DNA from: a virus
Strand: one strand, 5' to 3'
IMG/VR virus record: IMGVR_UViG_3300017991_000003
Location: 64,001 to 128,000 of that record
DNA: 64,000 nucleotides
A program made the translations under genes and the position numbers. The notes beneath the pieces were generated by a model. The model was not told the DNA's origin. It ran no database searches and was given only the letters and a program-made list of their open reading frames with translations. This document shows, in pieces, positions 7,178 to 32,414 of the stretch (positions are counted from its first letter, which is position 1; every line of letters starts with the position of its first letter).

Positions 7178-8539
7178 TCAGCCCGAGAAGGGGTCGCCGG
7201 CCAAGGGGTCCTGCCCCTCAGCCGGCTCCTTACCGTCACCGGCCTGCTGAGCCCCCGCATCCGGGAGATCCTGGAGCGCGCCCAGGGCCGATCCCGACGT
7301 CTGAACCGGCTGAGTCGCCGGAGCTTGCGTCACTTCGGGCTGGGCCGGCGGGGCAAGGGGCCCTCCAAGAGGAGGAGCGGCGGGGGCAGCGGGCGCGGGG
7401 GCTGCGGCAGGTGCGGAGCCGGGAAAGGGCAGGCCGCCACCCTGCGGGGCCGGCTGCGGCGCCGGGGCCTGCTGCGGGAAGAGGCCGCTACCCTGCGCCG
7501 GCTGCTGGAACAGCGGGGTCGGAGCAGGCTGAGGCTGAGCACCGGATTGCTGCATCGGCTGCTGCATCGGCTGCTGCATCGGCTGCTGCATCGGCTGAGG
7601 CGCCGCCCCGGCCGGCGGCATTTGACCATAACCCGCGCCGCCGGGGACCGTGCCGGTTGCTTGGGAGCCAGGACAGATCTGATCCATGACCCCCGCGTTG
7701 TAGGAGAGGCCTCGAACACCCGGGTGCTCGTCGCAGATCTGCCGGTGCAGACGCAGGATTTCACGAGCCTCCGCCTCGGAGTAGGCCGGGTAGATCTTGT
7801 TGAAGTCCACCGAGCCGGCCAGAGCCGCGAAGTCGCCCTCAGGGTTGGGGGCCATGTAGGCCGCTAGGGCTGTGACTAGCTCCTCGGTCGTGCCGAACGT
7901 CTGTCCCTGGTTCTCGCCCAAGTAGTACATCGGCATCCAGTTACCCAGCTTCGGGGCCTGCTTCTCGTGGGTGCGGTTCACGTTCCACACCGAGCCAAGG
8001 ATCGAGCGGTTCTTCATCTGACTGAAGGCCAGGAACTGATCGAGCATGGACTGGTTAGAGAACATGACCCAGCGGATGCTCCACGGGATCGTCTGCTGCT
8101 GCTTGTTGACCCAAGGGGTCATGTTGAGGACGGCCGCGGCCATTCCCAGCATCGGTTTCGGCTTACCGAGAGCGGGTCCGAACAGGTCCGGCTGACCGTT
8201 CTCGACCGGGTTACCCGCGTTATCGACGCCGGTGATGTGGGCAGCACGAACGATCTCCCACGTGGGGAAGCTAGCGTTCGGCGTGTTTTTCCACCCAGTA
8301 GCCACCCGGTAGTGCGGGATGAGGGTGACGTCGGAAAGGAAGGCGACCTGGATCTGCTGGCCGCGGGGCGCGAAGAACTCGCGATGAGGCTTGCGCTCGT
8401 CCCAGGTCTTGGACCACGGTCCGCTGCCGGCACCGATGGAGACGTTCTCGTTCTGGGCGATGGCCTGGTACTGCTGAAGGCCGCCCTGGGCTTGACCGCC
8501 TTGAGCGAAGGGGGTCGCGGGGTTCGTGGGGTCTGTCAT
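7178..8539 (-). CDS. hypothetical protein with Gln/Pro/Ala-rich low-complexity C-terminus
   Basis: 453-aa ORF between polymerase and primase; tail contains (QQPM)n encoded by a tandem 12-bp repeat. Confidence 0.6.
   Translation of the reverse strand: MTDPTNPATPFAQGGQAQGGLQQYQAIAQNENVSIGAGSGPWSKTWDERKPHREFFAPRGQQIQVAFLSDVTLIPHYRVATGWKNTPNASFPTWEIVRAAHITGVDNAGNPVENGQPDLFGPALGKPKPMLGMAAAVLNMTPWVNKQQQTIPWSIRWVMFSNQSMLDQFLAFSQMKNRSILGSVWNVNRTHEKQAPKLGNWMPMYYLGENQGQTFGTTEELVTALAAYMAPNPEGDFAALAGSVDFNKIYPAYSEAEAREILRLHRQICDEHPGVRGLSYNAGVMDQICPGSQATGTVPGGAGYGQMPPAGAAPQPMQQPMQQPMQQPMQQSGAQPQPAPTPLFQQPAQGSGLFPQQAPAPQPAPQGGGLPFPGSAPAAAPAPAAPAAPPLGGPLAPPAQPEVTQAPATQPVQTSGSALGALQDLPDAGAQQAGDGKEPAEGQDPLAGDPFSG
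7549..7596. repeat. tandem 12-bp repeat (about 4 copies of tgcatcggctgc)
   Basis: Direct tandem repetition read in the sequence inside CDS 7178..8539; in-frame. Confidence 0.8.
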
Positions 8540-9632: not shown

Positions 9633-12600
9633 ATGGCCGATAACGTCCAGCTCTACGACGCGCATCTAAACCTCTGGACCCTCAGGACATCCGAGGACAC
9701 AGAAATCCACACGCCGCACCACGTGTCGCGGCTGGCGGACGGGGAGGGGCGCTTCTACAGGCCCGGACGGCCGGTACCTGTGTCGATCTACGGGACGGAC
9801 GGGGTCGAGATCAACATCGAGGCCGGCTCGATCGCTGTCAGCACAGACCACAACGAGGACTCAGTAGCGGTCTTCGGGTCGTCGACCCCTGAGGGGCTGG
9901 AAAACTTCAGGTCGCTGGTGGTGGACCCCCAGGGGCACCTCCAGACCACAGTGGTCTCAGCGCCTGGGGTGGAGCCCGTCGGGGACTCGCCCGACGCGGG
10001 GCAGCTAGGTACGGTCATCCTAGGGGTCCAGGTAGGGGCAACGCCAGCTAGTCAGGTCACGGGGGACGGTCGGACAGCCCCTCTGATCATGGACGATCGG
10101 GGCCGGCTCTTCGTCTCTTTCGGCAACTCCGTCGCGGTTCTGCCCTTCACGCAAAAGGGTGACCTACTTACTTATGACGGATCTGACGAAGTTGTCCTGG
10201 GCCCGACGGTCGACGACGCGCTTCTGACACTGGACTCCAGTACCAGTACCGGCCTCAGGTGGGTGAGCCCGGTGACGAGCTCCCCCAGCCCCGTGCTCTT
10301 CCTACGCGAGGATCTAACATGGGCTCTGCCCTCAGCAGGGGCACCGGGCGGGGCTGCGGGCGGAGACTTGGGCGGGACCTATCCGAACCCGTCTGTGGTC
10401 GCTATCCAAGGGATTTCCACTTCTGCGGCTGCGCCAACGCCTGGGCAGACCTGGGTGTACACCGGCAGCGCTTGGAGTCCGGGAAGCCCGGCTACCGGAG
10501 CTGCTACGGACCACGGGACGCTCACAGGGCTCCTCGACGATGATCACACCCAGTACATCCTGGCTGATGGCTCTCGAGACTTCTCAGGCTCAATCGGCAT
10601 GGGTGGGAATGAGATCACGGATGTGGCCTCTCCTATCCTCGTATCCTGGGCAGCTAACAAGGGTTACGTTGATGATCAGATCACCGCGTCCGTCATCACG
10701 GACCACGGCGGGCTAGGCGGGCTCGGGGATGACGACCATACCCAGTACGTGTTGGTGGCTGGCACTCGTGCGTTCACGGGCGATCAGAGCCTAGGCGGTA
10801 ACAAGATCACGAGTCTGGGGTCCCCGACCACCGCAAGCGATGGAGCCAACAAAGGTTACGTCGACGCTAACGTGGTCACGGACCACGGCGCTTTGATCGG
10901 GCTGGGGGATGATGACCACACCCAGTACATCCTGACTGCGGGGACTCGAGCCTTCAGTGGTAACCAGAGCCTAGGCGGCAACCTGATCACAAGCCTAGGC
11001 TCGCCTACTACCGCAAGTGGTGGTGCTAACAAGGGTTACGTTGACGCGGCTATCACGTCGGCAGTGATCACGGATCACGGAGGGCTTGGCGGCCTGACGG
11101 ACGACGACCATACGCAGTACGTCCTGGTCGCAGGTACTCGAGCGTTCACAGGCAGCCAGAGCCTGGGCGGTAACCTGATCACGTCGCTAGGGTCTCCTAC
11201 TGTTGTAAGTGACGCAGCTAACAAAGGTTACGTTGATGCGCAGATCCCGACGAGCCTACCCCCTAGCGGGGCTGCTAGTGGTGATCTAGGCGGCACGTAC
11301 CCCGGGCCTACTGTGGTGGCCATTCAAGGCACCGGAGTCAGTGCAAACGCTCCAAGTACTGGTGATGGCCTGGTTTACACCGGAGCGGCTTGGAGTCCGA
11401 CCGCGGTCTATCGACCTGGCGGGACGGATGTGGCTGTGGCAGACGGGGGCACCGGGGCGTCGGACGCGTCCACGGCGCGTAGCAATCTAGGCCTGACCAT
11501 CGGGCTCGACGTCCAAGCCCACTCCGCAGTTCTTGACGCTACAACGGCCAGTTACACAACCGCGGCCGAGGGTAAGCTCTCGGGCATCGAGACCAACGCT
11601 GATGTCACGGACACAGCCAACGTGACGGCCGCTGGCGCTGTCATGATCGGCACAACGGCCGCGGCCGGGGACCTGAGCGGTACCTACCCGAGCCCGACGG
11701 TCGTGGCCATTCAGGGGACTGGCGTCTCGAGCACTGCGCCGAGCTCTGGGCAGGCCCTGATCTACTCCGGCACTGTCTGGAGCCCCAGCACGCTCCCCAG
11801 CGGGGTGACGGACCACGGGGCCCTGACCGGACTCGGAGACGACGACCATACCCAGTACATCCTGGTTGGTGGCACTCGCGCCTTCACGGGCAACCAGTCG
11901 ATGGGCGGCAACCTGCTCACGTCGTTGGGGAGCCCGGTGGCGGTAACAGACGCAGCTAACAAGGGTTACGTCAATGCCTCGATCACCGCGGCCGTCGTCA
12001 CGGACCACGGGGCCCTTGACGGGCTGGCCGATGACGACCACACCCAGTACCACAACGACGCTCGGGCGCTGACGTGGTTGGGGACGCGCGACACAGATGA
12101 CCTGGACCCGAGCGCCACCCGTCTCTACATGAGCCCGGGTGAGCGCACCAAGCTCGCCGGGATCGAAGCGCTTGCCGATGTGACCGATGCGGCCAACGTG
12201 GCCGCGGCCGGCGCTGTCATGGTCGGTGACGCTGCGGGCGGTGATCTTAGCGGTACCTACGCAAACCCGTCCGTGGTCGCGATCCAGGGTACGGGTTGCT
12301 CTTCAGCAACGCCGACCGCCGGCCAGACCTGGGTCTACTCCGGGTCCCAGTGGAGTCCTGGCTCACCCGCTGTTGGTGGCGCGTCAGATCACGGAACCCT
12401 GACCGGGCTGGGCGACGACGACCACACTCAGTACATTCTTGTTGACGGTACACGGGCCTTCACAGGCGCAGTTAGTCTCGGTGGGAGCCAGATCAACAGC
12501 CTGGCTTCGCCCACGCTCCCAGCAGATGCAGCCAACAAGGGCTACGTCGACGACCAGATCCCGACGAGTCTACCCCCTAGCGGGGCAGCGTCTGGCGACC

Positions 12601-13409
12601 TTGGTGGGACCTACCCGGGCCCAGACGTGGTGGCTATCCAGGGGACCGCGGTCAACTCGGCGACGCCGACGACGGGTGAGGCCCTGCTCTACTCGGGAAC
12701 GCAGTGGAGCCCTGGGCCGATCAACTTCCTCGAGCTCAACGACGTCGATCCCACAGGCCTGACCAACCTCGACCTGTTCTACTACAGCTCGGCGTCGGGG
12801 ACTATCGTCCGGTCTAGCGGCCTCACGACCTACGCGTTCTACACGCACAGCGGATCGCACATCCACGGACAGTACGACGCAATCGACGGGGATCAGCTAT
12901 CGATCACCCAGCCGGGCGTCAACTACTCCCCGACGACCGACGCGACATACGGCACCAACACGGCGCACCTCGCTGCCCATCTGCGGGGTATCGGTCTGGT
13001 CCTGGAGGATGTCAGTCCCGCGGTCACCAAGCTCGCCGGGATCGAGGCGGGCGCTGAAGCCAACGACGTTCAGACCAAGAGCATCACGATCGAGGCGCCG
13101 ACCACGACGGAAGACATCTCGTTCTTCTACGCTCCGGTAGCGATGACGATCTCAGAGATGGTCACGGTCCTGGTGGGCTCTCCTACGCCGTCCCTAGCGT
13201 GGACGCTCCGGCACAGCACCGACAGGAGCGCTGTGGGCAACGAGGTCATCACCGGGGGATCCACGGCGAATAGTACGACGACCGGTAACGTGCTGACCTC
13301 CTTCAACGACGCAACGGTCCCAGCCAACTCCTTCCTGTGGGTTGAAACGGCGAGCCCCAGCACGAACGTGACGAGCTTCCAGCTCAGCGTTGAGTACACC
13401 GACGACTGA
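9633..13409 (+). CDS. tail fibre protein, repeat-rich
   Basis: 1258 aa; about 7 copies of a ~60-aa unit (TDHGxLxGLxDDDHTQYxL...GGNxITSLGSP...ANKGYVD) resembling phage tail-fibre repeats, plus 5 copies of GDLGGTYPxPxVVAIQG; GGGAGG SD before ATG. Confidence 0.85.
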   Translation: MADNVQLYDAHLNLWTLRTSEDTEIHTPHHVSRLADGEGRFYRPGRPVPVSIYGTDGVEINIEAGSIAVSTDHNEDSVAVFGSSTPEGLENFRSLVVDPQGHLQTTVVSAPGVEPVGDSPDAGQLGTVILGVQVGATPASQVTGDGRTAPLIMDDRGRLFVSFGNSVAVLPFTQKGDLLTYDGSDEVVLGPTVDDALLTLDSSTSTGLRWVSPVTSSPSPVLFLREDLTWALPSAGAPGGAAGGDLGGTYPNPSVVAIQGISTSAAAPTPGQTWVYTGSAWSPGSPATGAATDHGTLTGLLDDDHTQYILADGSRDFSGSIGMGGNEITDVASPILVSWAANKGYVDDQITASVITDHGGLGGLGDDDHTQYVLVAGTRAFTGDQSLGGNKITSLGSPTTASDGANKGYVDANVVTDHGALIGLGDDDHTQYILTAGTRAFSGNQSLGGNLITSLGSPTTASGGANKGYVDAAITSAVITDHGGLGGLTDDDHTQYVLVAGTRAFTGSQSLGGNLITSLGSPTVVSDAANKGYVDAQIPTSLPPSGAASGDLGGTYPGPTVVAIQGTGVSANAPSTGDGLVYTGAAWSPTAVYRPGGTDVAVADGGTGASDASTARSNLGLTIGLDVQAHSAVLDATTASYTTAAEGKLSGIETNADVTDTANVTAAGAVMIGTTAAAGDLSGTYPSPTVVAIQGTGVSSTAPSSGQALIYSGTVWSPSTLPSGVTDHGALTGLGDDDHTQYILVGGTRAFTGNQSMGGNLLTSLGSPVAVTDAANKGYVNASITAAVVTDHGALDGLADDDHTQYHNDARALTWLGTRDTDDLDPSATRLYMSPGERTKLAGIEALADVTDAANVAAAGAVMVGDAAGGDLSGTYANPSVVAIQGTGCSSATPTAGQTWVYSGSQWSPGSPAVGGASDHGTLTGLGDDDHTQYILVDGTRAFTGAVSLGGSQINSLASPTLPADAANKGYVDDQIPTSLPPSGAASGDLGGTYPGPDVVAIQGTAVNSATPTTGEALLYSGTQWSPGPINFLELNDVDPTGLTNLDLFYYSSASGTIVRSSGLTTYAFYTHSGSHIHGQYDAIDGDQLSITQPGVNYSPTTDATYGTNTAHLAAHLRGIGLVLEDVSPAVTKLAGIEAGAEANDVQTKSITIEAPTTTEDISFFYAPVAMTISEMVTVLVGSPTPSLAWTLRHSTDRSAVGNEVITGGSTANSTTTGNVLTSFNDATVPANSFLWVETASPSTNVTSFQLSVEYTDD
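10506..12560 (+). repeat. intragenic array of ~180-bp diverged repeats in the tail fibre gene
   Basis: Repeated DDDHTQY / ANKGYVD units seen in the translation and DNA. Confidence 0.75.
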
Positions 13410-17174: not shown

Positions 17175-17562
17175 GAGGAAGTTTCTCGAGGATGAGGTAG
17201 ATGTCGCCAGCGTCCCAGGCAGCGGGATCGGTGAGGGCCTTGAGTACCTGAGTAGACGCCTTCAAATCATCCGGCGCGTAGGGGTCGCCGGTCTTGGCGT
17301 TCGACCACATTTTGGGCGTCAGTCGAAGCGGGCCGGCCCCAACCGGGGAGGACGCAATGTCGCCGCGGTACAGGAGCACGCTGATGACGTAAGCGATCTC
17401 TTGATCATCGAGGTGCTGATCCTCGACAACCTCGGAGGGCATCGACTTCGTCAGCTTGGGACTCACGTAGGTACTGAACAGGTCCCAGGACACGAAGCCG
17501 AGGAACCCGACAAGCAGGAGCGCTACTACGGTAGCGGTAACCCTAGCGATGAAGGTTTTCAT
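17152..17562 (-). CDS. membrane protein, lysis-associated (candidate holin or spanin)
   Basis: N-terminal hydrophobic helix (VTATVVALLLVGFLGFVSW); immediately downstream of the SLT-domain protein; start uncertain. Confidence 0.4.
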   Translation of the reverse strand: MKTFIARVTATVVALLLVGFLGFVSWDLFSTYVSPKLTKSMPSEVVEDQHLDDQEIAYVISVLLYRGDIASSPVGAGPLRLTPKMWSNAKTGDPYAPDDLKASTQVLKALTDPAAWDAGDIYLILEKLPHVYQAPK

Positions 17563-18107
17563 GGTAAGCGCGGACACGGGTCCAGAAGGGGATGGTGGAG
17601 ACCCGGGTCATGCCCATGGGTCCTCCGTTATGAATTCGAGCGATGGTCTCCAAGTCTCGAGCTGCCCAAGCCTCGGGGACCCAGCGAAGCATGTAGGCTT
17701 TGACGACCTGAGCTCCCATGGGGTAGATGCGGCAGAGCTCGTAGTCATCCGGGATACTTGGATCCTGCTCGCGAGCATCCTGCCAGTAGGCGCGGCTGAT
17801 CTGAAAGGGGCCGATTGATGTTCCGCCGCCCCCATCCGGCGGGTCGTACTGGCCGTCGGTCTCGGCAAGCCAGATCAGCTCGAGGACCTGCTCTTCGGTG
17901 AGTACAGGCTCTGCCGGAGCCGGGACACGGTCGGCCGCTTCAACGCCTGCGGCAGCACCATCCTTGAAGCCTTGGTCGTAGGCCAGGCCGCTGTCCTTGC
18001 GGTAGTTGTACGCGGTGATTGACGCACTCAGCACCACCAGGATGGCGGTGACGAGAAACCACGCGACCCAATCGCGGGTGTGGTTGGTGAATGGTTGAGT
18101 AGTCATG
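17543..18107 (-). CDS. membrane-anchored lysozyme-like/SLT-domain lytic transglycosylase (candidate endolysin)
   Basis: ORF trimmed to ATG 18107..18105 (MTTQPFTNH...); N-terminal TM helix (WVAWFLVTAILVVLSASITAY) then SLT-like motifs (LAETDGQ, GPFQISRAYW, IARIHNGGPMG). Confidence 0.6.
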
Positions 18108-18198
18108 CTGGTTCTCTGGGTGGTTGTTACAAGACGTTTGTAGCCAAGGGACTTATGACCGATAGGAGACCCGAGCTGAGCACCCGGATCCCCTGTGG

Positions 18199-19593
18199 CT
18201 AGTAGGCAGCCTGACCACCGCTGCTCGCCATGTCCTGGACAGGGCCGAGCTGCGCGAACCGCATGTCGTAGAGATCCCATTGAACACGATAGGGTTGGTC
18301 GACCGCACCGTCTCGGACCTTGCCGAGCTTCATGTCGATGACGCGGGCGTTGTTACCGGCATCCTTCGGCGGTACCAGGAAGACGAGGTTGTTGGAGTCG
18401 TGCGAGATGCTCTGGCTGAAAGCCACAGCATCAGCGTTCGACCGGGCCAGCGTGCCTTCATTTCGGCGCAGCTGCGTGGCCAGCATGTAGTGACGGTTGG
18501 ACATCAGCGTATGCAGACGCATCTGCCGCATGTTGCCCTCCACCTTCTGCCAGCGCTCCTTACCAGGGCCCTCCATGTAGTAGAAGCCGTCGATCAAGAC
18601 CAGGTCCGCGCCAAACTCCTCAGCCTGTGCGGCAACCTGATCAGGAGTCGTAGCCTGGTTAGGGCCCACGATGCGCAGGTTCTCACCAACGCGAGCGTGC
18701 GGCCCGTCTGCTTTCAGGCTACGCAATGCCTCGAAGTAGGCCGCCTTCTCCACGTCACTTAGCTTCTGCTTCATGAGGCGGTTGAAGCTAGTGCTCGAGA
18801 GCACCGCGGCTTGGCGTCGAGCCACATCGATGGGTGCCATCTCCAGACTGACGATCAAGACCCGAGCGCGGGCGGCGTCCTTCTGCTCCTGCGTCCACGC
18901 CGGGATGTCGGGTGGGCGGTGGAAGATGTAGGGATCTCCCAGGAGGCCGGCGGCACTGTTGAGCACGATGAACCAAGTCTTGCCGAGGCCGGTAGGAGCC
19001 ACACAGCTGGTGATCTGCGCAGGGTGCCAGCCCCCAAGCTGTTCCTGAATGAACAGGAACGGACAAGGGATGCCGAGCTTCACGCCGGCCAGCCGATCGT
19101 TGTAGTCCTGCTCGAGATCCTCAGCGTACTCTCGGAAGTCCTTGATCTCCGTCTTGTGTGCCGAGTACCTAGCTTGCAACGTATGAGCGTACAAGGACAT
19201 CGCGTCCTTGATGTCGAACGGGTCGGTGCGCTCGGTCAGCTGCTTGTGAAGATCCTGAAGGCTCTCTAGCACATCTACACGCACCGCCTCCTTAGCGACT
19301 TCGTCGTAGAGAACCGAGATGCTCGCTTCCGGGATCTCAGTACCAGCCAAGATCGTGGGAAGCTCAGGCCAGGCGCGCTGCGCCGTGTCAGGCGTAGGAA
19401 GCTCGTTGTACTGTGCTCGGTACCCGACGACCCACTCGATGATCTCCGTCATCGGCTCTTGAAAGAACCCGGGGTTGAGTCCGTTCTTGGCGACGTGGTG
19501 GTCGAAGGCGGCTAGGTTCCGGTCACTCAGGATCTTGGTCAGGAAGAGAGCCTCGACCCTGTCTCGAGAGTTGACGTTGGTGAACCCGGTCAC
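18199..19593 (-). CDS. replicative DNA helicase, DnaB-like
   Basis: 464 aa; Walker A (APTGLGKTWF), SLEM motif (LIVSLEMAP), Walker B-like (DLVLIDGF); likely GTG start overlapping upstream stop. Confidence 0.8.
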   Translation of the reverse strand: MTGFTNVNSRDRVEALFLTKILSDRNLAAFDHHVAKNGLNPGFFQEPMTEIIEWVVGYRAQYNELPTPDTAQRAWPELPTILAGTEIPEASISVLYDEVAKEAVRVDVLESLQDLHKQLTERTDPFDIKDAMSLYAHTLQARYSAHKTEIKDFREYAEDLEQDYNDRLAGVKLGIPCPFLFIQEQLGGWHPAQITSCVAPTGLGKTWFIVLNSAAGLLGDPYIFHRPPDIPAWTQEQKDAARARVLIVSLEMAPIDVARRQAAVLSSTSFNRLMKQKLSDVEKAAYFEALRSLKADGPHARVGENLRIVGPNQATTPDQVAAQAEEFGADLVLIDGFYYMEGPGKERWQKVEGNMRQMRLHTLMSNRHYMLATQLRRNEGTLARSNADAVAFSQSISHDSNNLVFLVPPKDAGNNARVIDMKLGKVRDGAVDQPYRVQWDLYDMRFAQLGPVQDMASSGGQAAY

Positions 19594-24900: not shown

Positions 24901-25128
24901 TAAAAAGCTCCTTGGTGAATCAACCGGAGCAGAGCTCCGGAGGTGAAAGGTGCCCCACCCGCCGAGAGGCGAGTGGGGCGGTTGCCAGGATGCACACGAA
25001 CTACTGGAGTGGTGGACCTGAGCTGAGCCGGAGTATGGCACCGGATCGAGCCGGATTCAGTGACTGCGTATAGCTCGTTGGGTTTGTCTACCTCGTGGAT
25101 GAGCTCGGAGTCACGACTCGAGCGGAGT

Positions 25129-25290
25129 CGCCTGCCTCGAGCTCATTGTTGCCATCATCTCGTCTGGTTGATGAGATGGCGGCGGCTCCTCCTCTCCTGT
25201 TATCCTGCGCTTACAGTATTCTCGGTGCCCGAGCTCGACCCATCTCGTCAACCTGACGCGATGATGGCAACAATGAGCTCGAGGCAGGCG
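25129..25290. repeat. 36-bp inverted repeat (35/36 matching) with ~90-bp spacer
   Basis: Left arm 25129-25164 cgcctgcctcgagctcattgttgccatcatctcgtc; right arm 25255-25290 is its reverse complement with one mismatch. Confidence 0.85.
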
Positions 25291-25440
25291 CCGCAGCGAG
25301 AGGCGCCGTGGCTCAGCCTCGTGGTGGGCAAACCCACGAGTTATTCGCAGACACTGAAGCCGGCCCGGTTGACATGCTCTGGCTCAGCTCAGGGTCTACC
25401 CGTAGGTGCAAGTGTGGCCGAGGTTGCTGTTGCGCTATCT

Positions 25441-25455
25441 GCGGCGATGCGCCGC
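25441..25455. repeat. short inverted-repeat motif GCGGCGATGCGCCGC, copy 1 of 3
   Basis: CGGCG-ATG-CGCCG core read directly; recurs at 25787 and 26040. Confidence 0.8.
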
Positions 25456-25786
25456 AGGACCCTCAAGTCAAGAGGGAATAGCTCTTCGTGTGCGGGGATT
25501 CCAAGGCAAGAGCCTGGATGGGCGCGCAGAGCATGATCCCGGTCGTGGAGGCGTGCCCGAGCTTTGTACGCGACCCGGTTCGGGTCGAGGATAAAGCGAA
25601 GGACCAGCACGCTGTAACGATCCGTGGATTATGCTCCGCGCTGTCCCAGCCAGCGCTTCGTTGGTAGTGGGAGGCGCCTCCGCTAGGAGGCGACGTCCTC
25701 GAGTTGCGCTACTGAAGCGACCACACATGCTGGCATGTGTAGCTTCAGGTGCGCAGTGCTCGAGGCCCACGACCAGTCGTACAGTG

Positions 25787-25801
25787 GCGGCGATGCGCCG
25801 C
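25787..25801. repeat. short inverted-repeat motif GCGGCGATGCGCCGC, copy 2 of 3
   Basis: Identical 15-mer to copy 1; flanks extend the inverted repeat to 17 bp. Confidence 0.8.
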
Positions 25802-26039
25802 CTGAAGACGTTGTGGATTAGGCCTCCGGTAGGCCCGTTCCAGTCTTTCTACTCCCTTGGAAAGGTAGTCACCTCTTGCGAGGCTGGCTGGCTACCTTGG
25901 TATCGGCGCTCGTAGAGACTACCCGGTCACACGCCCGCCGGAGGCGGGCTTGTGGACGCGTGGTCTCAACGTAATGTGTCACAGGAGACAGCTCGAGGCG
26001 CAGCTCGAGCGGGCCTCCGGCCACAGTTTCTATCACTTG

Positions 26040-26054
26040 ACGGCGATGCGCCGC
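26040..26054. repeat. short inverted-repeat motif (a)CGGCGATGCGCCGC, copy 3 of 3
   Basis: 13-bp core identical to copies 1 and 2; spacing between copies about 345 and 250 bp. Confidence 0.75.
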
Positions 26055-26265
26055 CGCGGAAGTCAGATGGGCTAGCTAGACCACTTCTTTCCTTGCTCCG
26101 CCGAAGATGTACCTGTTGGCAGCCCTGGTACTGGGCTTTTGGCTATGAAGAACGGATCATCGGGGCCAACTACCCTCCTGCTCTTCGTGCCTGTTGGTAC
26201 CGGCCTTTGGCCGGCAGCCGAGCCTGCTCCGGATTATGTGGAGCAGACTCGGTTCACTTGGTGCG

Positions 26266-27495: not shown

Positions 27496-29394
27496 TCAGG
27501 GGTAGATGGGGAGGGTGGCTTCTGTTTCGGACTTGTTGCAGAAGGCGATCTCCTCGAGGAGGACATCGTCTTCCATGTCGTCGGGGTCCTCGAGGACTCC
27601 GTCCATCTCGAGCACCAGTCGATCCATCTGATCGAGGATCTCTTGGTAGTCCTTGCGGTAGGGAATGCCGGCGTTCTGGGCCGCCTTGCGGACGACAAAG
27701 TAGGTCAGCCGGAACCACTCGAGCAGGACGCCGTCGGAGTCCTCTCGCGAGAATGCCTCGACGTAGCTCAGGTTGGTCTCGATCACGGTCTCGATCACGG
27801 TGTCGATCGACGTCTCGGGGAACACAGTTTTCACCGTCGGGTCGGCGTAGACGTATTTCGAGAGCTTGTCGATCCGGGCATCCAGTGCGATCGACTTGAA
27901 TAGCCGGTCGAGAAGGTCGTCGATGCGATTCATCACCTCGTCGATGACGTCTCGAACCAGCATGCTGTAGAGGGTCTGACGACTCTCGGATGCGCTGTTC
28001 TGCGCTTCTTCGACGATCTCTTCGATCGTGGGGGCGTTATCGAACCACTCACTGGTCGAGGCGTGGTTCATGAGCAGATGCAGGGCTAGGGCCGTAGCGT
28101 TGCTCGACGTCAGACTGTCCTTGAACGAGGTGCAGTACGCCCACACGGCTCGTGGGAAGGTCGTTTGCTGACCCTCCGCCTTCTTGATCAGCTGAAGGGG
28201 GTAGTGCGCTTGCGGTGAGATCACCATGCCGTAGAAGCCGGTGTGCATCCGCTGGATGCGGAACTTCTTATCAGCGACCAGCGAAGGGCCAGAGGCTGTC
28301 TTGCTGACAGGTACCAGTGAGGTAGTCGTCTTCTTCGTCGTCTGGCCAAGGCCACCCTGCGCCCCCGTACCCCCAGTCTTGCCGCCAGGAGTCGAAGGCG
28401 TACCCGCTTTGCCGCCGGTCCACTTTTTCGAGCCATAGCCGCCATACCTGCTGGTCTTGGCTTTCTTCTCCGCCTCCTTGATGGCCTCGCTGGCCAACTT
28501 GAACGTGGTAAGACAACGGGCGGCCTCGCCCATCCTGTCCTTCCAACGCCCCAGGCTTTCCATCGACCCACAGAAGGTCATCACAGTGCTCGTGTCGACG
28601 TCCTCGAGCTTGTCGACGCTGAGACCGACGGCGAGCTCGTCGGGATCGACCCCGGCCTTCAGCATGGCTTCGCACAGTCCGGGGTGGGCGACCCGGTTCA
28701 GCCACAGCTGAATCAGATCCAGGCCGCCCTCCACGAAAGGGATGTCGAACAACTCCTCGAGACCGGTCGCGTGGCGGATGCCCTGCGCCTTCTCGTTGCG
28801 GTAGCCGGGGAGGGCGGTGACGAACGACGGGCACACCGAGAAGGGCGGCTTGTCCACGTTCCCGAAGGTGATGTGGAAGCCCGTCTGGTTGAGCTCGTTG
28901 GCGTCGTCGGTCGAGCTGTGGTAGGCTCCACCAGCGCCGTGACTGTGCGCGGTGCCGACGCAGATGAACTCGACAAGCTCTCCATCCTCGCAGATGGGGC
29001 AAGCGTTGCCGGCTTCGAGCTCGATCGAGCCGATGCGACAGGTCGTGCAGAAGCTCTTGACGTTGGGATCGTACTTCACGTGCCCCGCGGAGGCGGTGTA
29101 CCACGGCGGACTGACGAGGGTGTAGGCGTCGTCGACCGGCCCTCGGTGGAAGAGCACGAAGGCCTCGGTCTTCCACAGGCGGTAGACCTCGGCGAAGTAG
29201 CGGTAGACGAACATCGTCTCCGCCATGGAGATCTTGGGCCAGTTGGTGAGGTCCAGGTCACGCTGGATCTGGTCGGTTTCACCGAGGTCCTCGGCCCGGG
29301 CGGGAACGAAGGCCTGAGCCCAGGCGGCCCCGCCTGGGCCGATGGTCTTCAGCACGTGGGCTTGGTTGCCCTTGTAGTAGATGTCGGTGGTCAT
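27496..29394 (-). CDS. JAB/JAMM (MPN+) metalloprotease-domain protein with N-terminal zinc ribbon and long C-terminal extension
   Basis: Exact JAMM motif HSHGAGGAYHSSTD (HxHx7Sx2D) after CTTC...CPIC; Gly/Lys-rich linker; ATG 29394 overlaps upstream stop (ATGA). Confidence 0.7.
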   Translation of the reverse strand: MTTDIYYKGNQAHVLKTIGPGGAAWAQAFVPARAEDLGETDQIQRDLDLTNWPKISMAETMFVYRYFAEVYRLWKTEAFVLFHRGPVDDAYTLVSPPWYTASAGHVKYDPNVKSFCTTCRIGSIELEAGNACPICEDGELVEFICVGTAHSHGAGGAYHSSTDDANELNQTGFHITFGNVDKPPFSVCPSFVTALPGYRNEKAQGIRHATGLEELFDIPFVEGGLDLIQLWLNRVAHPGLCEAMLKAGVDPDELAVGLSVDKLEDVDTSTVMTFCGSMESLGRWKDRMGEAARCLTTFKLASEAIKEAEKKAKTSRYGGYGSKKWTGGKAGTPSTPGGKTGGTGAQGGLGQTTKKTTTSLVPVSKTASGPSLVADKKFRIQRMHTGFYGMVISPQAHYPLQLIKKAEGQQTTFPRAVWAYCTSFKDSLTSSNATALALHLLMNHASTSEWFDNAPTIEEIVEEAQNSASESRQTLYSMLVRDVIDEVMNRIDDLLDRLFKSIALDARIDKLSKYVYADPTVKTVFPETSIDTVIETVIETNLSYVEAFSREDSDGVLLEWFRLTYFVVRKAAQNAGIPYRKDYQEILDQMDRLVLEMDGVLEDPDDMEDDVLLEEIAFCNKSETEATLPIYP

Positions 29395-29816
29395 GTGGTG
29401 ATCAGGGGTGGGTGGAATCGACGTAGGACGGTCAAGACCGCCTGGGTGTCTTCGTTGATGTCTTGCTCGGCTAGTAGGTGATCGAGCCGGCGCATCCAAT
29501 CACGTAGGGTCGTGAGCTGCTCGGGGCCCATGCTCGCCGGAGGGTCGACGACAGGACGTCGGTCGCTCTCGTCTCGGATCAAGTTGAAGCGGATGTTGTT
29601 GATCCTTCCACCGTCTAGCGCAACTGGATAGGTGCGTTGGAAGATCTGACCAAGAGCCTCGATCATCTCTCGAGTAAGACCCGTCCCCTCAAGATCGAGA
29701 AGGTGCGGTCGGTTCTCGAGGATCCGAGATAGAAGCTCCTCGCGTCTCCGGATAATGGCCTGGTGATCATTGTGTCGATCACGCGCGCCTTGCACGGTGT
29801 CCAGAATGGTGGTCAT
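29391..29816 (-). CDS. hypothetical protein (operon member, no Cys)
   Basis: ATG 29816 (MTTILDTVQ...) overlaps stop of upstream gene (ATGA); 141 aa. Confidence 0.5.
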   Translation of the reverse strand: MTTILDTVQGARDRHNDHQAIIRRREELLSRILENRPHLLDLEGTGLTREMIEALGQIFQRTYPVALDGGRINNIRFNLIRDESDRRPVVDPPASMGPEQLTTLRDWMRRLDHLLAEQDINEDTQAVLTVLRRFHPPLITT

Positions 29817-30655
29817 CGGACCACCTCTCGCCACTTCTCGGCCGCCGTACCGAGCTCCCGGCCCAGTACGATCTCATCGACGTCCGTCTGCCAGGTCATG
29901 ATGCGATCCTCGGTCCAGCGCTGCCATCGACAGAACTGCCAGAGCATGACAGTGTTCATGTTCAGGCCCAGATCACGCCGCCTGTCGTAGTCGGTGTAGT
30001 CACCTTCGGGGAGTTGCTCGAAGTACGGGACCTCTCGAAGCGCTTCGGGAACCTCAAACCCCTCAGGGAGCGGCCCGCTGAAAGGTGGCATGGTCAGGGA
30101 GTGCTCGTAGTGCGCGTTGTAGCCGGACTCGTTGATGAGCTTGAGGACCATCTCCGGGATCGACTGGAGCCCGTTGTACCGGTACTGGCGGAACACAGCA
30201 CCCGTGCACATGCCTCCCGTATCTTGCTGGTTCGGTAGGAATGATTTGTACAGAACCGGGGTGTACCCCGCCTCCAGATGCGGCTGCTGCTTGGTGAAGA
30301 AGCAGCGGGCATCGGAGAGGCGCCCGTCGTAGATCGAGATGATGAAGACGCGCGCAGGCATGGCGACCAGGAATCGAAGACCCTCCGGCCAGCCGCGGTT
30401 CTCGCGGACGTCGATGGAGATCCTCTCAGCCCGCGGAGGCACGACTGCCATGAAGTGCTCGTTGTGGGCATCCTTGGTGTGTGCCAGGATGTTTACGTAG
30501 GGGTGGTACGGAAAGAGGGCGCCAGCGCGCCGGCCTCGTTCCTCGAGGGCGGTCACGACGTCTTCTTCCCGCGTGATGCGGTTGACGTGAACCGTTTGAT
30601 GGATCACGTGACCATCGACGATGACGAGTCGATCGTGGGTTTCGAAGTTGGTCAT
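29813..30655 (-). CDS. hypothetical protein translationally coupled to the reverse transcriptase (candidate accessory/effector)
   Basis: 280 aa; ATG at 30655 overlaps RT stop at 30652 (ATGA); no recognised motif. Confidence 0.55.
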   Translation of the reverse strand: MTNFETHDRLVIVDGHVIHQTVHVNRITREEDVVTALEERGRRAGALFPYHPYVNILAHTKDAHNEHFMAVVPPRAERISIDVRENRGWPEGLRFLVAMPARVFIISIYDGRLSDARCFFTKQQPHLEAGYTPVLYKSFLPNQQDTGGMCTGAVFRQYRYNGLQSIPEMVLKLINESGYNAHYEHSLTMPPFSGPLPEGFEVPEALREVPYFEQLPEGDYTDYDRRRDLGLNMNTVMLWQFCRWQRWTEDRIMTWQTDVDEIVLGRELGTAAEKWREVVR

Positions 30656-31755
30656 GGGAGGTACGCGCGTGTCTCGGCGCTGTAGTTGGTGGGGGTGTTG
30701 TGGTGCACGTCTTGCGCGACACGCAGTTGTAGTTGGAGCGAGGCTCCTTGATCAGGGTTGATGAAGTTGACGTGGTTGACGAGGCCGGCGAGGTGGTCAA
30801 AGTTCACCGGCACAGGGCCTCGGTGCGTCAGCTCTCCCCCACGGGGACAGCGGCCGAAGTGCGCGTCGCAGATGATCTTGTGCAGCCGGGCGCGAAGCGC
30901 GCGCCGTCGAGGCCTGGGAGCGCTTAGCTTCTCGTTGACGACGACGCCGCAGACCGTCATGCGACTGCCGATGGAGCGGAATCGGATCTTTTCGGGGGCG
31001 ACCTTGTAGCCCAGCTTTTTCAGGAACCCGATGACGGGGTACTGGAACTGGTACAGCTTTCTGTAATCCGCCGTGAAGGTCATGTCGTCGCTATAGCGGG
31101 TGTACGCGATCGGCAGGAGTCTGATCTGAGTCTGCGTCTTTCGCCGGCGCTCTCCGTGGTTGTCGACCCACCGCATCGTGGGGTTGGTCCGCCAGGACTC
31201 GATCAGCTTCAGGATGCCGAAGTCCACCTGAGCCCCTGCCAGGTTGGAGAGGAAGGGGGACGTGGGGGCTCCTTGTGGTAGGCCACCATCCAAGAAGCAG
31301 GCGCGTTTGACTCTGTCAAGGAAGAGCCTGTCGGCACGTGACATCGGTTGCATGTACCCCCTGGTCAGGAAGTACTCCAGCTGCTCGAGGACGACGTGGG
31401 GAGACACGGACGGGAAGAAGTCCCGCAGATCGATGTCCAGCTTGTACCGGTGACCTACATGCGGGGCGGCGTTGGTGTGGATACCACGCTTGCGGACGTA
31501 GGCATGAGCTGCTGGGGAGGCCCCGATCCCGAGCGCTTTGAGCTCGCTGAGGATGAGCTTTTGAGCAGCCATTAGCTCCGGGCAAGGGATCTGGAGCTTT
31601 CGCATCTTCTGACGTGTCCGACCGTTCGAAAGCGTCTCGAGTACCGGGACTTCTCGACCATCCCGGGTACGCCTGGTCTTGGGGATTCGTGCGAATCGGT
31701 AGTGCTCAGCTTGAGCGGTGTCCGTCAGGACATTGAATGATGGGTAGCCAGCCAT
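30652..31755 (-). CDS. reverse transcriptase, retron-type
   Basis: 367 aa; RT motifs: HTNAAPHVGHRYKLDIDLRDFFPSV (NAxxH + motif 2), LPQGAPTSPFLSNL (QGxxxSP), YTRYSDDMTF (YxDD), TVCGVVVN (VTG-like); GAGGGT SD before ATG 31755. Confidence 0.85.
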   Translation of the reverse strand: MAGYPSFNVLTDTAQAEHYRFARIPKTRRTRDGREVPVLETLSNGRTRQKMRKLQIPCPELMAAQKLILSELKALGIGASPAAHAYVRKRGIHTNAAPHVGHRYKLDIDLRDFFPSVSPHVVLEQLEYFLTRGYMQPMSRADRLFLDRVKRACFLDGGLPQGAPTSPFLSNLAGAQVDFGILKLIESWRTNPTMRWVDNHGERRRKTQTQIRLLPIAYTRYSDDMTFTADYRKLYQFQYPVIGFLKKLGYKVAPEKIRFRSIGSRMTVCGVVVNEKLSAPRPRRRALRARLHKIICDAHFGRCPRGGELTHRGPVPVNFDHLAGLVNHVNFINPDQGASLQLQLRVAQDVHHNTPTNYSAETRAYLP

Positions 31756-31811: not shown

Positions 31812-32414
31812 TCACTCCGTGGTTTGAGGAAGTAGCGGGAGGTCCGCCTGGTGAAAGGCCTGGAAGATCGCCGAGGCGACGGTCTTCAGACGGCTTTCGA
31901 AGATCAGGTGGTCCGGGTGAGACATCTCCCCAGCGGGCGGGAGCTCTTTGAACAGCCGGTCGATGATGGCTACGAGCAGGTCGTTAGCGTCGGCCTGGCT
32001 GACCAGGAGGCTCCGGGGGCGGAGGTTGATGTTCAGATTGGAGGCTATGCCCCGTAGCACCGGTGGACGGGACCGGGCCGCGTGGACGGCGAAGGCGATT
32101 GAGGCTAGCCGGTGGTTGTTGTCGGCCGCAGACGGTGTGGTGGTGGCGGGGTTGTGCTTGCGGAGCGGGTCCGTGTCGGGGACCGGGTCGGGCAGCACCA
32201 GGGGACCTACGCCGTTTTTGGCCAATCGGTGGTAAAGGCTTAGAGCTGCCAAAGCCCCGAGTCCCATAGCCGGCAGCAATGCGCGGTTGGAGACTCGAGC
32301 GGGGCGTGGTGCGTCGACTGAGTCGGTCGACCACCAGGCGGACAGCCCTTCACGAACGGGCCCTTCATAGAGGGGCCACGTCTTCGTCAAGGCATCAATG
32401 ACGGGGACGTACAT
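31812..32414 (-). CDS. hypothetical protein (uncertain; region may instead be non-coding leader of the RT operon)
   Basis: 200-aa ORF with no Shine-Dalgarno before its ATG. Confidence 0.3.
   Translation of the reverse strand: MYVPVIDALTKTWPLYEGPVREGLSAWWSTDSVDAPRPARVSNRALLPAMGLGALAALSLYHRLAKNGVGPLVLPDPVPDTDPLRKHNPATTTPSAADNNHRLASIAFAVHAARSRPPVLRGIASNLNINLRPRSLLVSQADANDLLVAIIDRLFKELPPAGEMSHPDHLIFESRLKTVASAIFQAFHQADLPLLPQTTE

Follow-up and report, generated by a model that had tools for sequence, protein, structure and literature searches.

A long zinc-ribbon JAMM protein, the probable protease arm of a ubiquitin-like cascade, is encoded in a block headed by a retron-type reverse transcriptase in a large uncultured phage

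We analysed a window of 64,000 nt from the IMG/VR virus record IMGVR_UViG_3300017991_000003 (positions 64,001 to 128,000 of that record; coordinates refer to this window unless a related locus is named). Its minus strand carries an open reading frame (ORF) for a long protein of the JAB/JAMM type, hereafter JAB, which runs from an ATG at 29394 to a stop codon at 27496-27498 and encodes 632 amino acids (aa). This ATG is preferred over a TTG at 29499, an unlikely start that would give 667 aa, because all homologues align from the ATG and because this codon overlaps the stop of the upstream gene Y, which ends at 29391. The protein is identical to the metagenomic protein cluster P0001, found on contigs of up to 193 kb, and the same sequence is present on the IMG/VR contig UViG_3300018080_003942. 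According to an alignment of the window JAB family (17 homologues; alignment A1) and an AlphaFold2 model built on it, the protein comprises the following parts:

28690..29394, minus strand: N-terminal JAMM domain, aa 1-235, including the catalytic E77 (29164-29166)
28990..29049, minus strand: zinc-ribbon insert CxxC-x12-CxxC (C116, C119, C132, C135), between E77 and the HxH strand
28906..28947, minus strand: JAMM metal/catalytic motif H150-S-H152-x7-S160-x2-D163, invariant columns of A1
28450..28689, minus strand: alpha/beta extension of the JAB domain, aa 236-315, with modelled strands and helices
28150..28449, minus strand: basic, disordered linker rich in S/T/P/G/K, aa 316-415, with a predicted local distance difference test score (pLDDT) of 23-35
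27499..28149, minus strand: clade-specific helical C-terminal region, aa 416-632, delimited by model and alignment

An earlier reading made from the letters alone (the sequence-only reading) had described an ORF of about 632 aa with a CxxC...CxxC ribbon directly before an HSH...S..D site, and all of these elements are present (C116, C119, C132 and C135; H150-S151-H152; S160 and D163). Together with E77 they make up ten residues (E77, C116, C119, C132, C135, H150, S151, H152, S160 and D163) that are invariant in 17 of 17 homologues. As the identity of the N-domain (aa 1-235) across these homologues is only 36-67%, the invariance is selective and not due to chance. Between H152 and D163 the residues are spaced as in canonical JAMM motifs (H152-x7-S160-x2-D163). 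The Pfam model Prok-JAB (PF14464) matches aa 146-180 of the window protein with 24.4 bits against a cut-off of 25, so that the domain would have been missed by Pfam alone; a precomputed PF14464 match exists in 14 of the 17 homologues. A search of the JAB sequence profile against PDB returned only designed helical bundles and non-significant RING matches. The AlphaFold2 model has a mean pLDDT of 65, with aa 1-315 forming a reasonably confident alpha/beta domain; its MPN fold is borne out by fold superposition, in which the closest solved structure is BilC. The JAMM identity proposed before thus holds by both motif, invariant in all 17 homologues, and predicted fold, so the window protein is a member of the JAMM/MPN+ group in these respects. 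The superposition and the invariance of the motif also argue for an intact metal site.

The zinc ribbon is placed between E77 and HxH, the position taken up by the Ins-1 flap in the structures of AMSH-LP, Rpn11 and CSN5. Because of this placement, the ribbon most likely forms a flap that would clamp the tail of a ubiquitin-like protein (Ubl).

The window protein is longer than the usual JAB partners of E1 enzymes, as had been noted: JABs of plasmid cassettes have about 200-400 aa, and the chains of BilC and Cap3 about 150-160 aa. The 'about 300 more residues' announced by the sequence-only reading exist, but they are not a single block; they consist of the alpha/beta extension of ~80 aa, a linker of ~100 aa and a helical region of ~190 aa. 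The extension (pLDDT about 56-82) shows 12-44% identity across the family. The linker, expected to be flexible, is indeed disordered in the model at aa 316-415; 71% of its residues in the window protein are G/S/T/P/K/A/Q. On average over the 17 homologues it contains 17% K+R and 4.6% D+E, compared with 8.6% and 14.6% in the rest of the protein; an S/T/P/G-rich basic linker is kept in every member, while the rest of the protein is acidic. The helical region (aa 416-601) is modelled with a pLDDT of mostly 70-90, and the identity of aa 416-610 to the window protein is 10-30% among the homologues. No invariant residue, polar or other, was found within the C-terminal region in A1, and the linker has one invariant Pro. 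The C-terminal profiles of three clades show no similarity to one another (hhalign probability <=2.5%), and we rejected homology of this region between clades on this basis. Structural matches are generic four-helix bundles only, with 5-11% identity. The region is shortened in family members of 414-419 aa, and in L032 the JAB is as short as 355 aa and an ORF of its own, encoding 185 aa (7245-7802), lies between it and E1, which hints that the C-terminal module can exist as a separate subunit.

An effector or targeting role had been suggested for the C-terminal half. Its reading as an enzymatic effector was not borne out: invariant polar residues and homology between clades are lacking, and structure prediction with fold comparison gave generic four-helix bundles without any sign of an effector. 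A variable adaptor or targeting domain is possible. The lack of invariant polar residues and of inter-clade homology, the basic linker in 17 of 17 homologues and the split in L032 together fit better with a fast-evolving adaptor or tether than with a conserved enzyme or enzymatic effector, as judged from the alignments. Candidate partners of the linker and the C-terminal region are Y, a conjugation target, or nucleic acid made by the reverse transcriptase (RT) described below; for the basic linker, binding of nucleic acid or a role as a lysine-rich acceptor is conceivable.

JAB is the fourth gene of a six-gene block on the minus strand, in the order RT, X, Y, JAB, E1 and U:

30652..31755, minus strand: retron-type RT, first gene of the block, 367 aa, Pfam RVT_1
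29813..30655, minus strand: X, diverged E2 (Prok-E2_D homologue), 280 aa, with candidate catalytic Cys149
29391..29816, minus strand: Y, small fast-evolving protein without assigned function, 141 aa
27496..29394, minus strand: JAB, long JAMM/MPN+ protein, 632 aa plus stop codon
26757..27491, minus strand: ThiF-type E1, 244 aa
26266..26733, minus strand: U, ubiquitin-like (beta-grasp) protein ending ...KERG, 155 aa

From RT to E1, successive stop and start codons overlap or almost touch, with the RT stop overlapping the X start, and no terminator-like site was found on the minus strand within the block. The gene order is kept in 12 of 12 lineages with an available upstream flank (the window, L002, L003, L006, L007, L009, L011, L013, L015, L023, L030 and L032), and in nearly all of them the end of RT overlaps or directly adjoins the start of X. 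JAB has as neighbours a ThiF-type E1 and the small protein U with an invariant C-terminal K-x-R-G; the sequence-only reading, which mentioned a neighbouring beta-grasp protein, left out E77, the E2 homologue X two genes upstream and the RT three genes upstream of JAB. Its observation is confirmed and its interpretation partly supported, and the finding is more interesting through its operon context than that reading saw.

E1 matches Pfam ThiF (E 9e-14) and, as its best NCBIfam family, PRTRC_ThiF (E 5.8e-15, under the curated cut-off); it also weakly matches ThiF and MoeB models. Its invariant motifs are GxGG, NxxR, VDN and the Cys in FPDExxC. The C-terminus of U ends in an invariant K-x-R-G, beyond which relatives carry 0-2 further residues (V, NA or N); these trailing residues are a candidate substrate of a processing protease. 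When the U profile was compared with PDB, 15 of 16 weak matches (E 0.03-1) were ubiquitin-fold proteins (ubiquitin, SUMO, polyubiquitin). Pfam ThiS, matched by 2 of 9 members, is the only family match for U. At its N-terminus (aa 1-55), U bears an extension conserved in three clades (window/L009, L002/L006 and L011), RPxF...RIKYADSP...Y.EDRSDP..W.QVTGLP, which a low-complexity linker connects to the rest; the U proteins of the other clades are the beta-grasp domain alone, with a length of about 78-95 aa. Any conjugation of the Ubl would carry this extension along.

The residues P140, N141, C149 and G151 of X (PN-x7-C-x-G) are invariant. By hhalign, X aligns with the Prok-E2_D proteins of plasmid cassettes over 146 columns (96.7%, E 3.9e-10), with the LPN...C.G motifs in register. 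The 8-residue spacing from the PN asparagine to the cysteine in X matches that of LPN...C.G in the Prok-E2_D proteins and that of the HPN...C loop of UBC-type E2s. Pfam Prok-E2_D matches weakly in 3 of 9 X proteins and PRTRC_B in 1 of 9 (E 0.026), and the X profile gave nothing meaningful against PDB. The AlphaFold2 model of X, built on an alignment of 8 sequences, has a pLDDT of 40, too low for a fold search, with a predicted order of secondary structures compatible with the UBC fold. By profile and motif, X is a diverged homologue of Prok-E2_D-type E2s. The Y position holds an ORF of 82-211 aa at every locus, without sequence similarity between clades; no relatives of Y were detected outside its own clade, nor any family match in Pfam, PADLOC, PHROGs or NCBIfam. 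JAB, X, Y and the Ubl likewise had no matches in PHROGs and PADLOC.

The best matches of RT are retron RT models (PADLOC RT_III-A, E 2e-44), and its YxDD and LPQGxxxSP motifs are conserved and intact; the NCBIfam retron St85 family scores 132 bits against a cut-off of 235. The RT is retained in all 12 lineages, which have diverged to about 36% identity. No Rfam family reached its gathering score in the window, and only tRNAs did so in six related loci; within the same scope, no msr-msd-like non-coding RNA (ncRNA) was found beside RT. The gap between RT and the upstream ORF is only 56 nt. This ORF of 200 aa (31812-32414, minus strand) has a counterpart in L009 with 37% identity, and unrelated small ORFs of 84-101 aa occupy the position in other clades. 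A conserved 78-nt stretch upstream of the block in L002, L006 and L011 was considered as msr-msd and rejected, as it consists of tandem GGCCAAAA..GGCTATTT repeats beside a promoter-like box. These repeats (L002 7180-7260; L006 7420-7500; L011 about 2300-2350) have a period of about 20 nt and look like operators or iterons; they lie upstream of the block, within the divergent promoter region, and precede a GGCATAAG-CTATAT box.

The block is carried by big phage-like metagenomic contigs, of 126-193 kb where long. On one flank lie divergently transcribed tail-type genes and on the other an O-like initiator, DnaB and ribonucleotide reductase; the window further encodes a family-A DNA polymerase, primase, exonuclease and tail fibre. 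Between three clades, identities are 34-41% for DnaB, 36-37% for RT, 36-41% for E1 and 34-42% for the JAB N-domain, while X and Y evolve faster than the latter three. As RT, E1 and the JAB N-domain diverge like DnaB, that is, like core genes, the block is inherited vertically within the core genome. No JAB relatives were found by a pattern scan of one genome each of 185,579 reference species, nor any JAB match by tblastn in 50,697 GenBank phage records, and the phage's own DNA polymerase has <=30% identity to that of any isolate. An exhaustive search of 1.84 billion cluster representatives with a hidden Markov model returned 47 JAB clusters at E <=1e-30 (355-651 aa) and 2,038 clusters at E <=1e-3.

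Even the distant family members with a linked RT (P0059, P0045 and P0063) have the zinc-ribbon insert, which is missing from the non-RT-linked P0064, P0066, P0068 and P0100 and from plasmid JABs. The ribbon therefore marks the RT-linked family. The next tier of JABs (P0064 and P0066, E about 1e-27) comes from other jumbo-phage-like contigs without RT. On two such contigs, which encode a multisubunit RNA polymerase with an intein, SbcCD and radical SAM proteins, an 840-861-aa protein, JAB and ThiF are found with a second ThiF-family gene nearby and no RT (L027 4435-12163; L028 4482-10570); the L027 copy of the 840-861-aa protein weakly matches Prok-E2_D.

These results make it probable, from motifs and modelled fold, that the product of the ORF is an active zinc isopeptidase of the JAMM/MPN+ group and serves as protease arm in a Ubl cascade of a large uncultured phage of virulent type. 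In such a cascade, the ThiF-type E1 would adenylate the C-terminal glycine of the K-x-R-G tail of the Ubl, the Ubl would be handed as a thioester to the invariant Cys149 of X, the Prok-E2_D-type E2, and it would then be attached to some target. The JAMM protein would trim the 1-2 residues after the terminal glycine of the Ubl in some relatives and would reverse conjugation, as BilC, Cap3 and Rpn11 do, with the basic linker and the helical C-terminal region most likely acting as a tether or adaptor. The likeliest role of the protein is thus the maturation and deconjugation of the phage's own Ubl. The least supported part of this picture is that the cascade acts in or on phage nucleic-acid metabolism, which we propose because RT always heads the block and the block adjoins replication genes.

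A further step, which we take only tentatively, is that the six genes form one undescribed machine, in which RT is physically and functionally coupled to the complete E1-E2-Ubl-JAMM cascade and which large aquatic phages of a deep lineage keep as a core module. Under such coupling, Ubl conjugation might be directed at, or triggered by, RT or the nucleic acid that it makes; the basic linker of the JAMM protein would then hold this nucleic acid, and the zinc-ribbon flap would control deconjugation.

Several points weigh against the interpretation of the protein as protease arm of a Ubl cascade. The Prok-JAB score of the window protein lies slightly under the Pfam threshold, the Ubl fold assignment is weak at the level of sequence (E >=0.03), and the Ubl terminus is R-G, where G-G is usual. 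The E2 assignment of X comes from profile-profile similarity and a motif, with a model of pLDDT 40. No conjugation target, E3 or template RNA of RT was identified. The RT-linked loci all come from one phage lineage with a conserved genome order, and therefore synteny alone is no proof that RT and the cascade cooperate.

This last point leads to the alternative that RT and the Ubl cascade are mere neighbours in a syntenic phage backbone, with the JAMM protein belonging to a five-gene Ubl module unconnected to RT. It is a possible though doubtful explanation: the RT-linked loci belong to one phage group in which the flanking tail and replication genes are syntenic too, related E2_D-JAB-ThiF triads on plasmids and other jumbo-phage-like contigs do without RT, and Rfam searches gave no retron-type ncRNA, whereas the coding regions of RT and X overlap or directly adjoin in nearly all lineages, RT has persisted throughout 12 lineages whose identity has dropped to about 36%, and the zinc-ribbon JAB variant occurs only where RT is present. 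A different view takes the JAMM protein as a counter-defence deconjugase, which would mainly cleave host Ubl conjugates (e.g. Bil-type, or Cap2-type of the cyclic-oligonucleotide-based antiphage signalling system (CBASS)) on phage or host proteins; its variable C-terminal region would recognise host factors, and the phage E1, E2 and Ubl would be decoys or competitors. The protein is phage-encoded, among solved structures it is closest to BilC, which acts as deconjugase in an anti-phage system, and the C-terminal region and Y evolve very fast, as in an arms race. Such a role is nevertheless unlikely, as E1, E2 and Ubl, partners that a purely anti-defence deubiquitinase would not need, are always inherited together with JAB and have invariant catalytic residues, and as the block is a vertically inherited core module and not a patchy accessory gene.

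The same genes could also serve a sulfur-carrier pathway, CysO-Mec+ or siderophore-like, in which a thiocarboxylated carrier would donate sulfur, perhaps to a modification of nucleic acids or cofactors, and JAB would only unmask the C-terminal glycine. ThiS as the sole family match of U (2 of 9 members), the weak matches of E1 to ThiF and MoeB models and the residues beyond the terminal glycine in some relatives' U would agree with it. However, every block includes an E2 homologue with an invariant cysteine, the operon contains no rhodanese, sulfurtransferase or acceptor synthase by Pfam and NCBIfam, U ends in R-G where ThiS and MoaD end in G-G, and by profile the block comes nearest to the E2_D-JAB-E1 cassettes of mobile elements, which makes a sulfur carrier quite improbable. 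Least of all do we expect the C-terminal half to be a toxic or enzymatic effector that is released or activated by the JAMM domain or by Ubl conjugation. Other conflict systems do include JAB proteins of several domains with fused effectors (PMC7159879), and the flexible linker would permit release, but the C-terminal region has no invariant residue apart from one Pro in the linker, is not homologous between clades, resembles only generic helical bundles at 5-11% identity and is shortened in the 414-419-aa members. The maturation and deconjugation of the phage's own Ubl remains the preferred reading.

Among known systems, the E2_D-JAB-ThiF cassettes of plasmids, phage-plasmids and integrative and conjugative elements (PF14460, PF14464 and ThiF; TIGRFAMs PRTRC A, B and ThiF) have the enzyme families E2, JAB and E1 in common with the phage block, arranged in this order there too, and are likewise embedded in replication and recombination regions of mobile elements; in the phage block, Y is inserted between E2 and JAB. 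The JAB N-domain aligns with the JABs of plasmid cassettes by hhalign (93%, E 3.4e-7), with the signature S-x-x-D-D-x-x-E common to both, and the plasmid cassettes sit among DnaN, Rad52, RecG and helicases. Although PRTRC_A and PRTRC_ThiF are the best NCBIfam matches of the phage JAB and E1, the scores fall far below those families' thresholds (PRTRC_A 19.6 vs 101.8 bits; PRTRC_ThiF 55.3 vs 144.75 bits), and no ParB-related or PRTRC C-F matches were found among the phage block proteins by Pfam and NCBIfam. The JABs of PRTRC-type cassettes (about 200-400 aa) come without zinc ribbon, RT, Y and basic linker, and, unlike these cassettes, the phage block belongs to the core gene set of a virulent-type phage lineage. 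On the Bacillus thuringiensis plasmid NZ_CP013278.1 (L019, 3677-7390), such a triad comprises an E2_D of 253 aa, a JAB of 396 aa, which is another long one, and a ThiF of 291 aa, directly followed by an RNase-H-like RVT_3 protein. The RVT_3 gene beside this E1 is a second, weak hint of a link between the cascade and nucleic-acid metabolism.

Bil (BilA Ubl, BilB E2, BilC JAMM and BilD E1) comprises the same four functional classes as the phage block, and the expected chemistry of E1 adenylation, E2 thioester and JAMM deconjugation would be shared. Bil is host-encoded, has a single-domain BilC of ~160 aa and no RT, whereas the phage block is viral (an IMG/VR UViG) and its E2 belongs to the Prok-E2_D lineage. 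PADLOC defence models did not match JAB, X or the Ubl, the presence of Bil models in that PADLOC release being uncertain. Cap2 of CBASS is an E1-E2 fusion and Cap3 has about 150 aa; in contrast, the phage block has a separate E1 (244 aa) and E2 (280 aa) and no CD-NTase or effector gene. With retrons it shares an RT that resembles retron RT models, has intact motifs and is co-transcribed with accessory proteins, but retrons have an msr-msd ncRNA, none of which was found at the phage block, and the phage RT stays under the NCBIfam cut-off; retrons reside in bacterial defence islands or prophages, whereas this RT lies in the core genome of a virulent-type phage. We know of no retron type with E1, E2, Ubl or JAB accessory genes.

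A phage JAB paired with a beta-grasp protein bearing a C-terminal glycine occurs in the tail-assembly proteins K (JAB + NlpC/P60) and I (Ubl) of lambda and T1 (PMC1779556). The block differs from this pair in that it lacks an NlpC/P60 domain, includes E1 and E2, and lies outside the tail cluster, divergently transcribed from it and together with replication genes. In open-access papers and bioRxiv, no phage module that links an RT to E1, E2, Ubl and JAB was found described.

Bacterial Ubl conjugation in phage defence (Bil, CBASS Cap2/Cap3) is a recent finding, and there the pathways are owned by the host. Here, a phage lineage owns the full cascade as a vertically inherited core module, joined in an operon to a retron-type RT beside replication genes. 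If both halves cooperate, protein tagging would be linked to reverse transcription, a link not found in the literature searched. The RT-coupled block around JAB may be a new kind of system if the coupling is functional: were the six genes one machine, RT-associated systems would gain a new class, and a ubiquitin-like conjugation pathway in a phage core genome would for the first time be tied to nucleic-acid synthesis. The system would also be compact and self-contained (six genes, about 5.5 kb) and could lend itself to reconstitution in E. coli. The long JAMM protein is the signature component of the family, and its zinc-ribbon insert provides a sequence handle for further members.

The non-coding gap of ~1.2 kb that follows the operon contains further structures. 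At 25005-25405, about 0.9 kb downstream of the block, lies a nearly perfect hairpin of ~400 nt with nested inverted repeats and arms of <=66 nt (RNA folding energy -243 kcal/mol, z-score -16). An analogous hairpin of ~494 nt occupies the same relative position in L006 (13433-13926), and the hairpin is missing in some relatives. Possible roles are those of a replication origin, of a cruciform and of a template for RT. A small palindrome, GGCGGCGCATCGCCGCC (minus strand; 7-bp stem, 3-nt loop), occurs three times in the gap (25439-25456, 25785-25802 and 26038-26055), at spacings of 346 and 253 nt and with a T-run after none of the copies. In relatives, the gap downstream of the Ubl gene carries tRNA-Ala(TGC) genes, in L011 together with Pro and Asn (L002 13415-13490; L006 13006-13079; L011 8489-8722); the window has no tRNA. 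The tRNA-Ala stretches of L002 and L011 are 99% identical, although the proteins of these two loci are only about 40-50% identical.

Elsewhere in the window, the 1258-aa protein encoded at 9633-13409 (plus strand) has repeated matches to tail-fibre and head-decoration PHROGs in many short stretches, which suggests a repetitive (collagen-like or Gly-rich) fibre. The gene adjoining DnaB (17543-18280, minus strand) encodes a Pfam Destabilase domain (invertebrate-type lysozyme) according to precomputed annotation of the same contig, a lysozyme type that is unusual for a phage.

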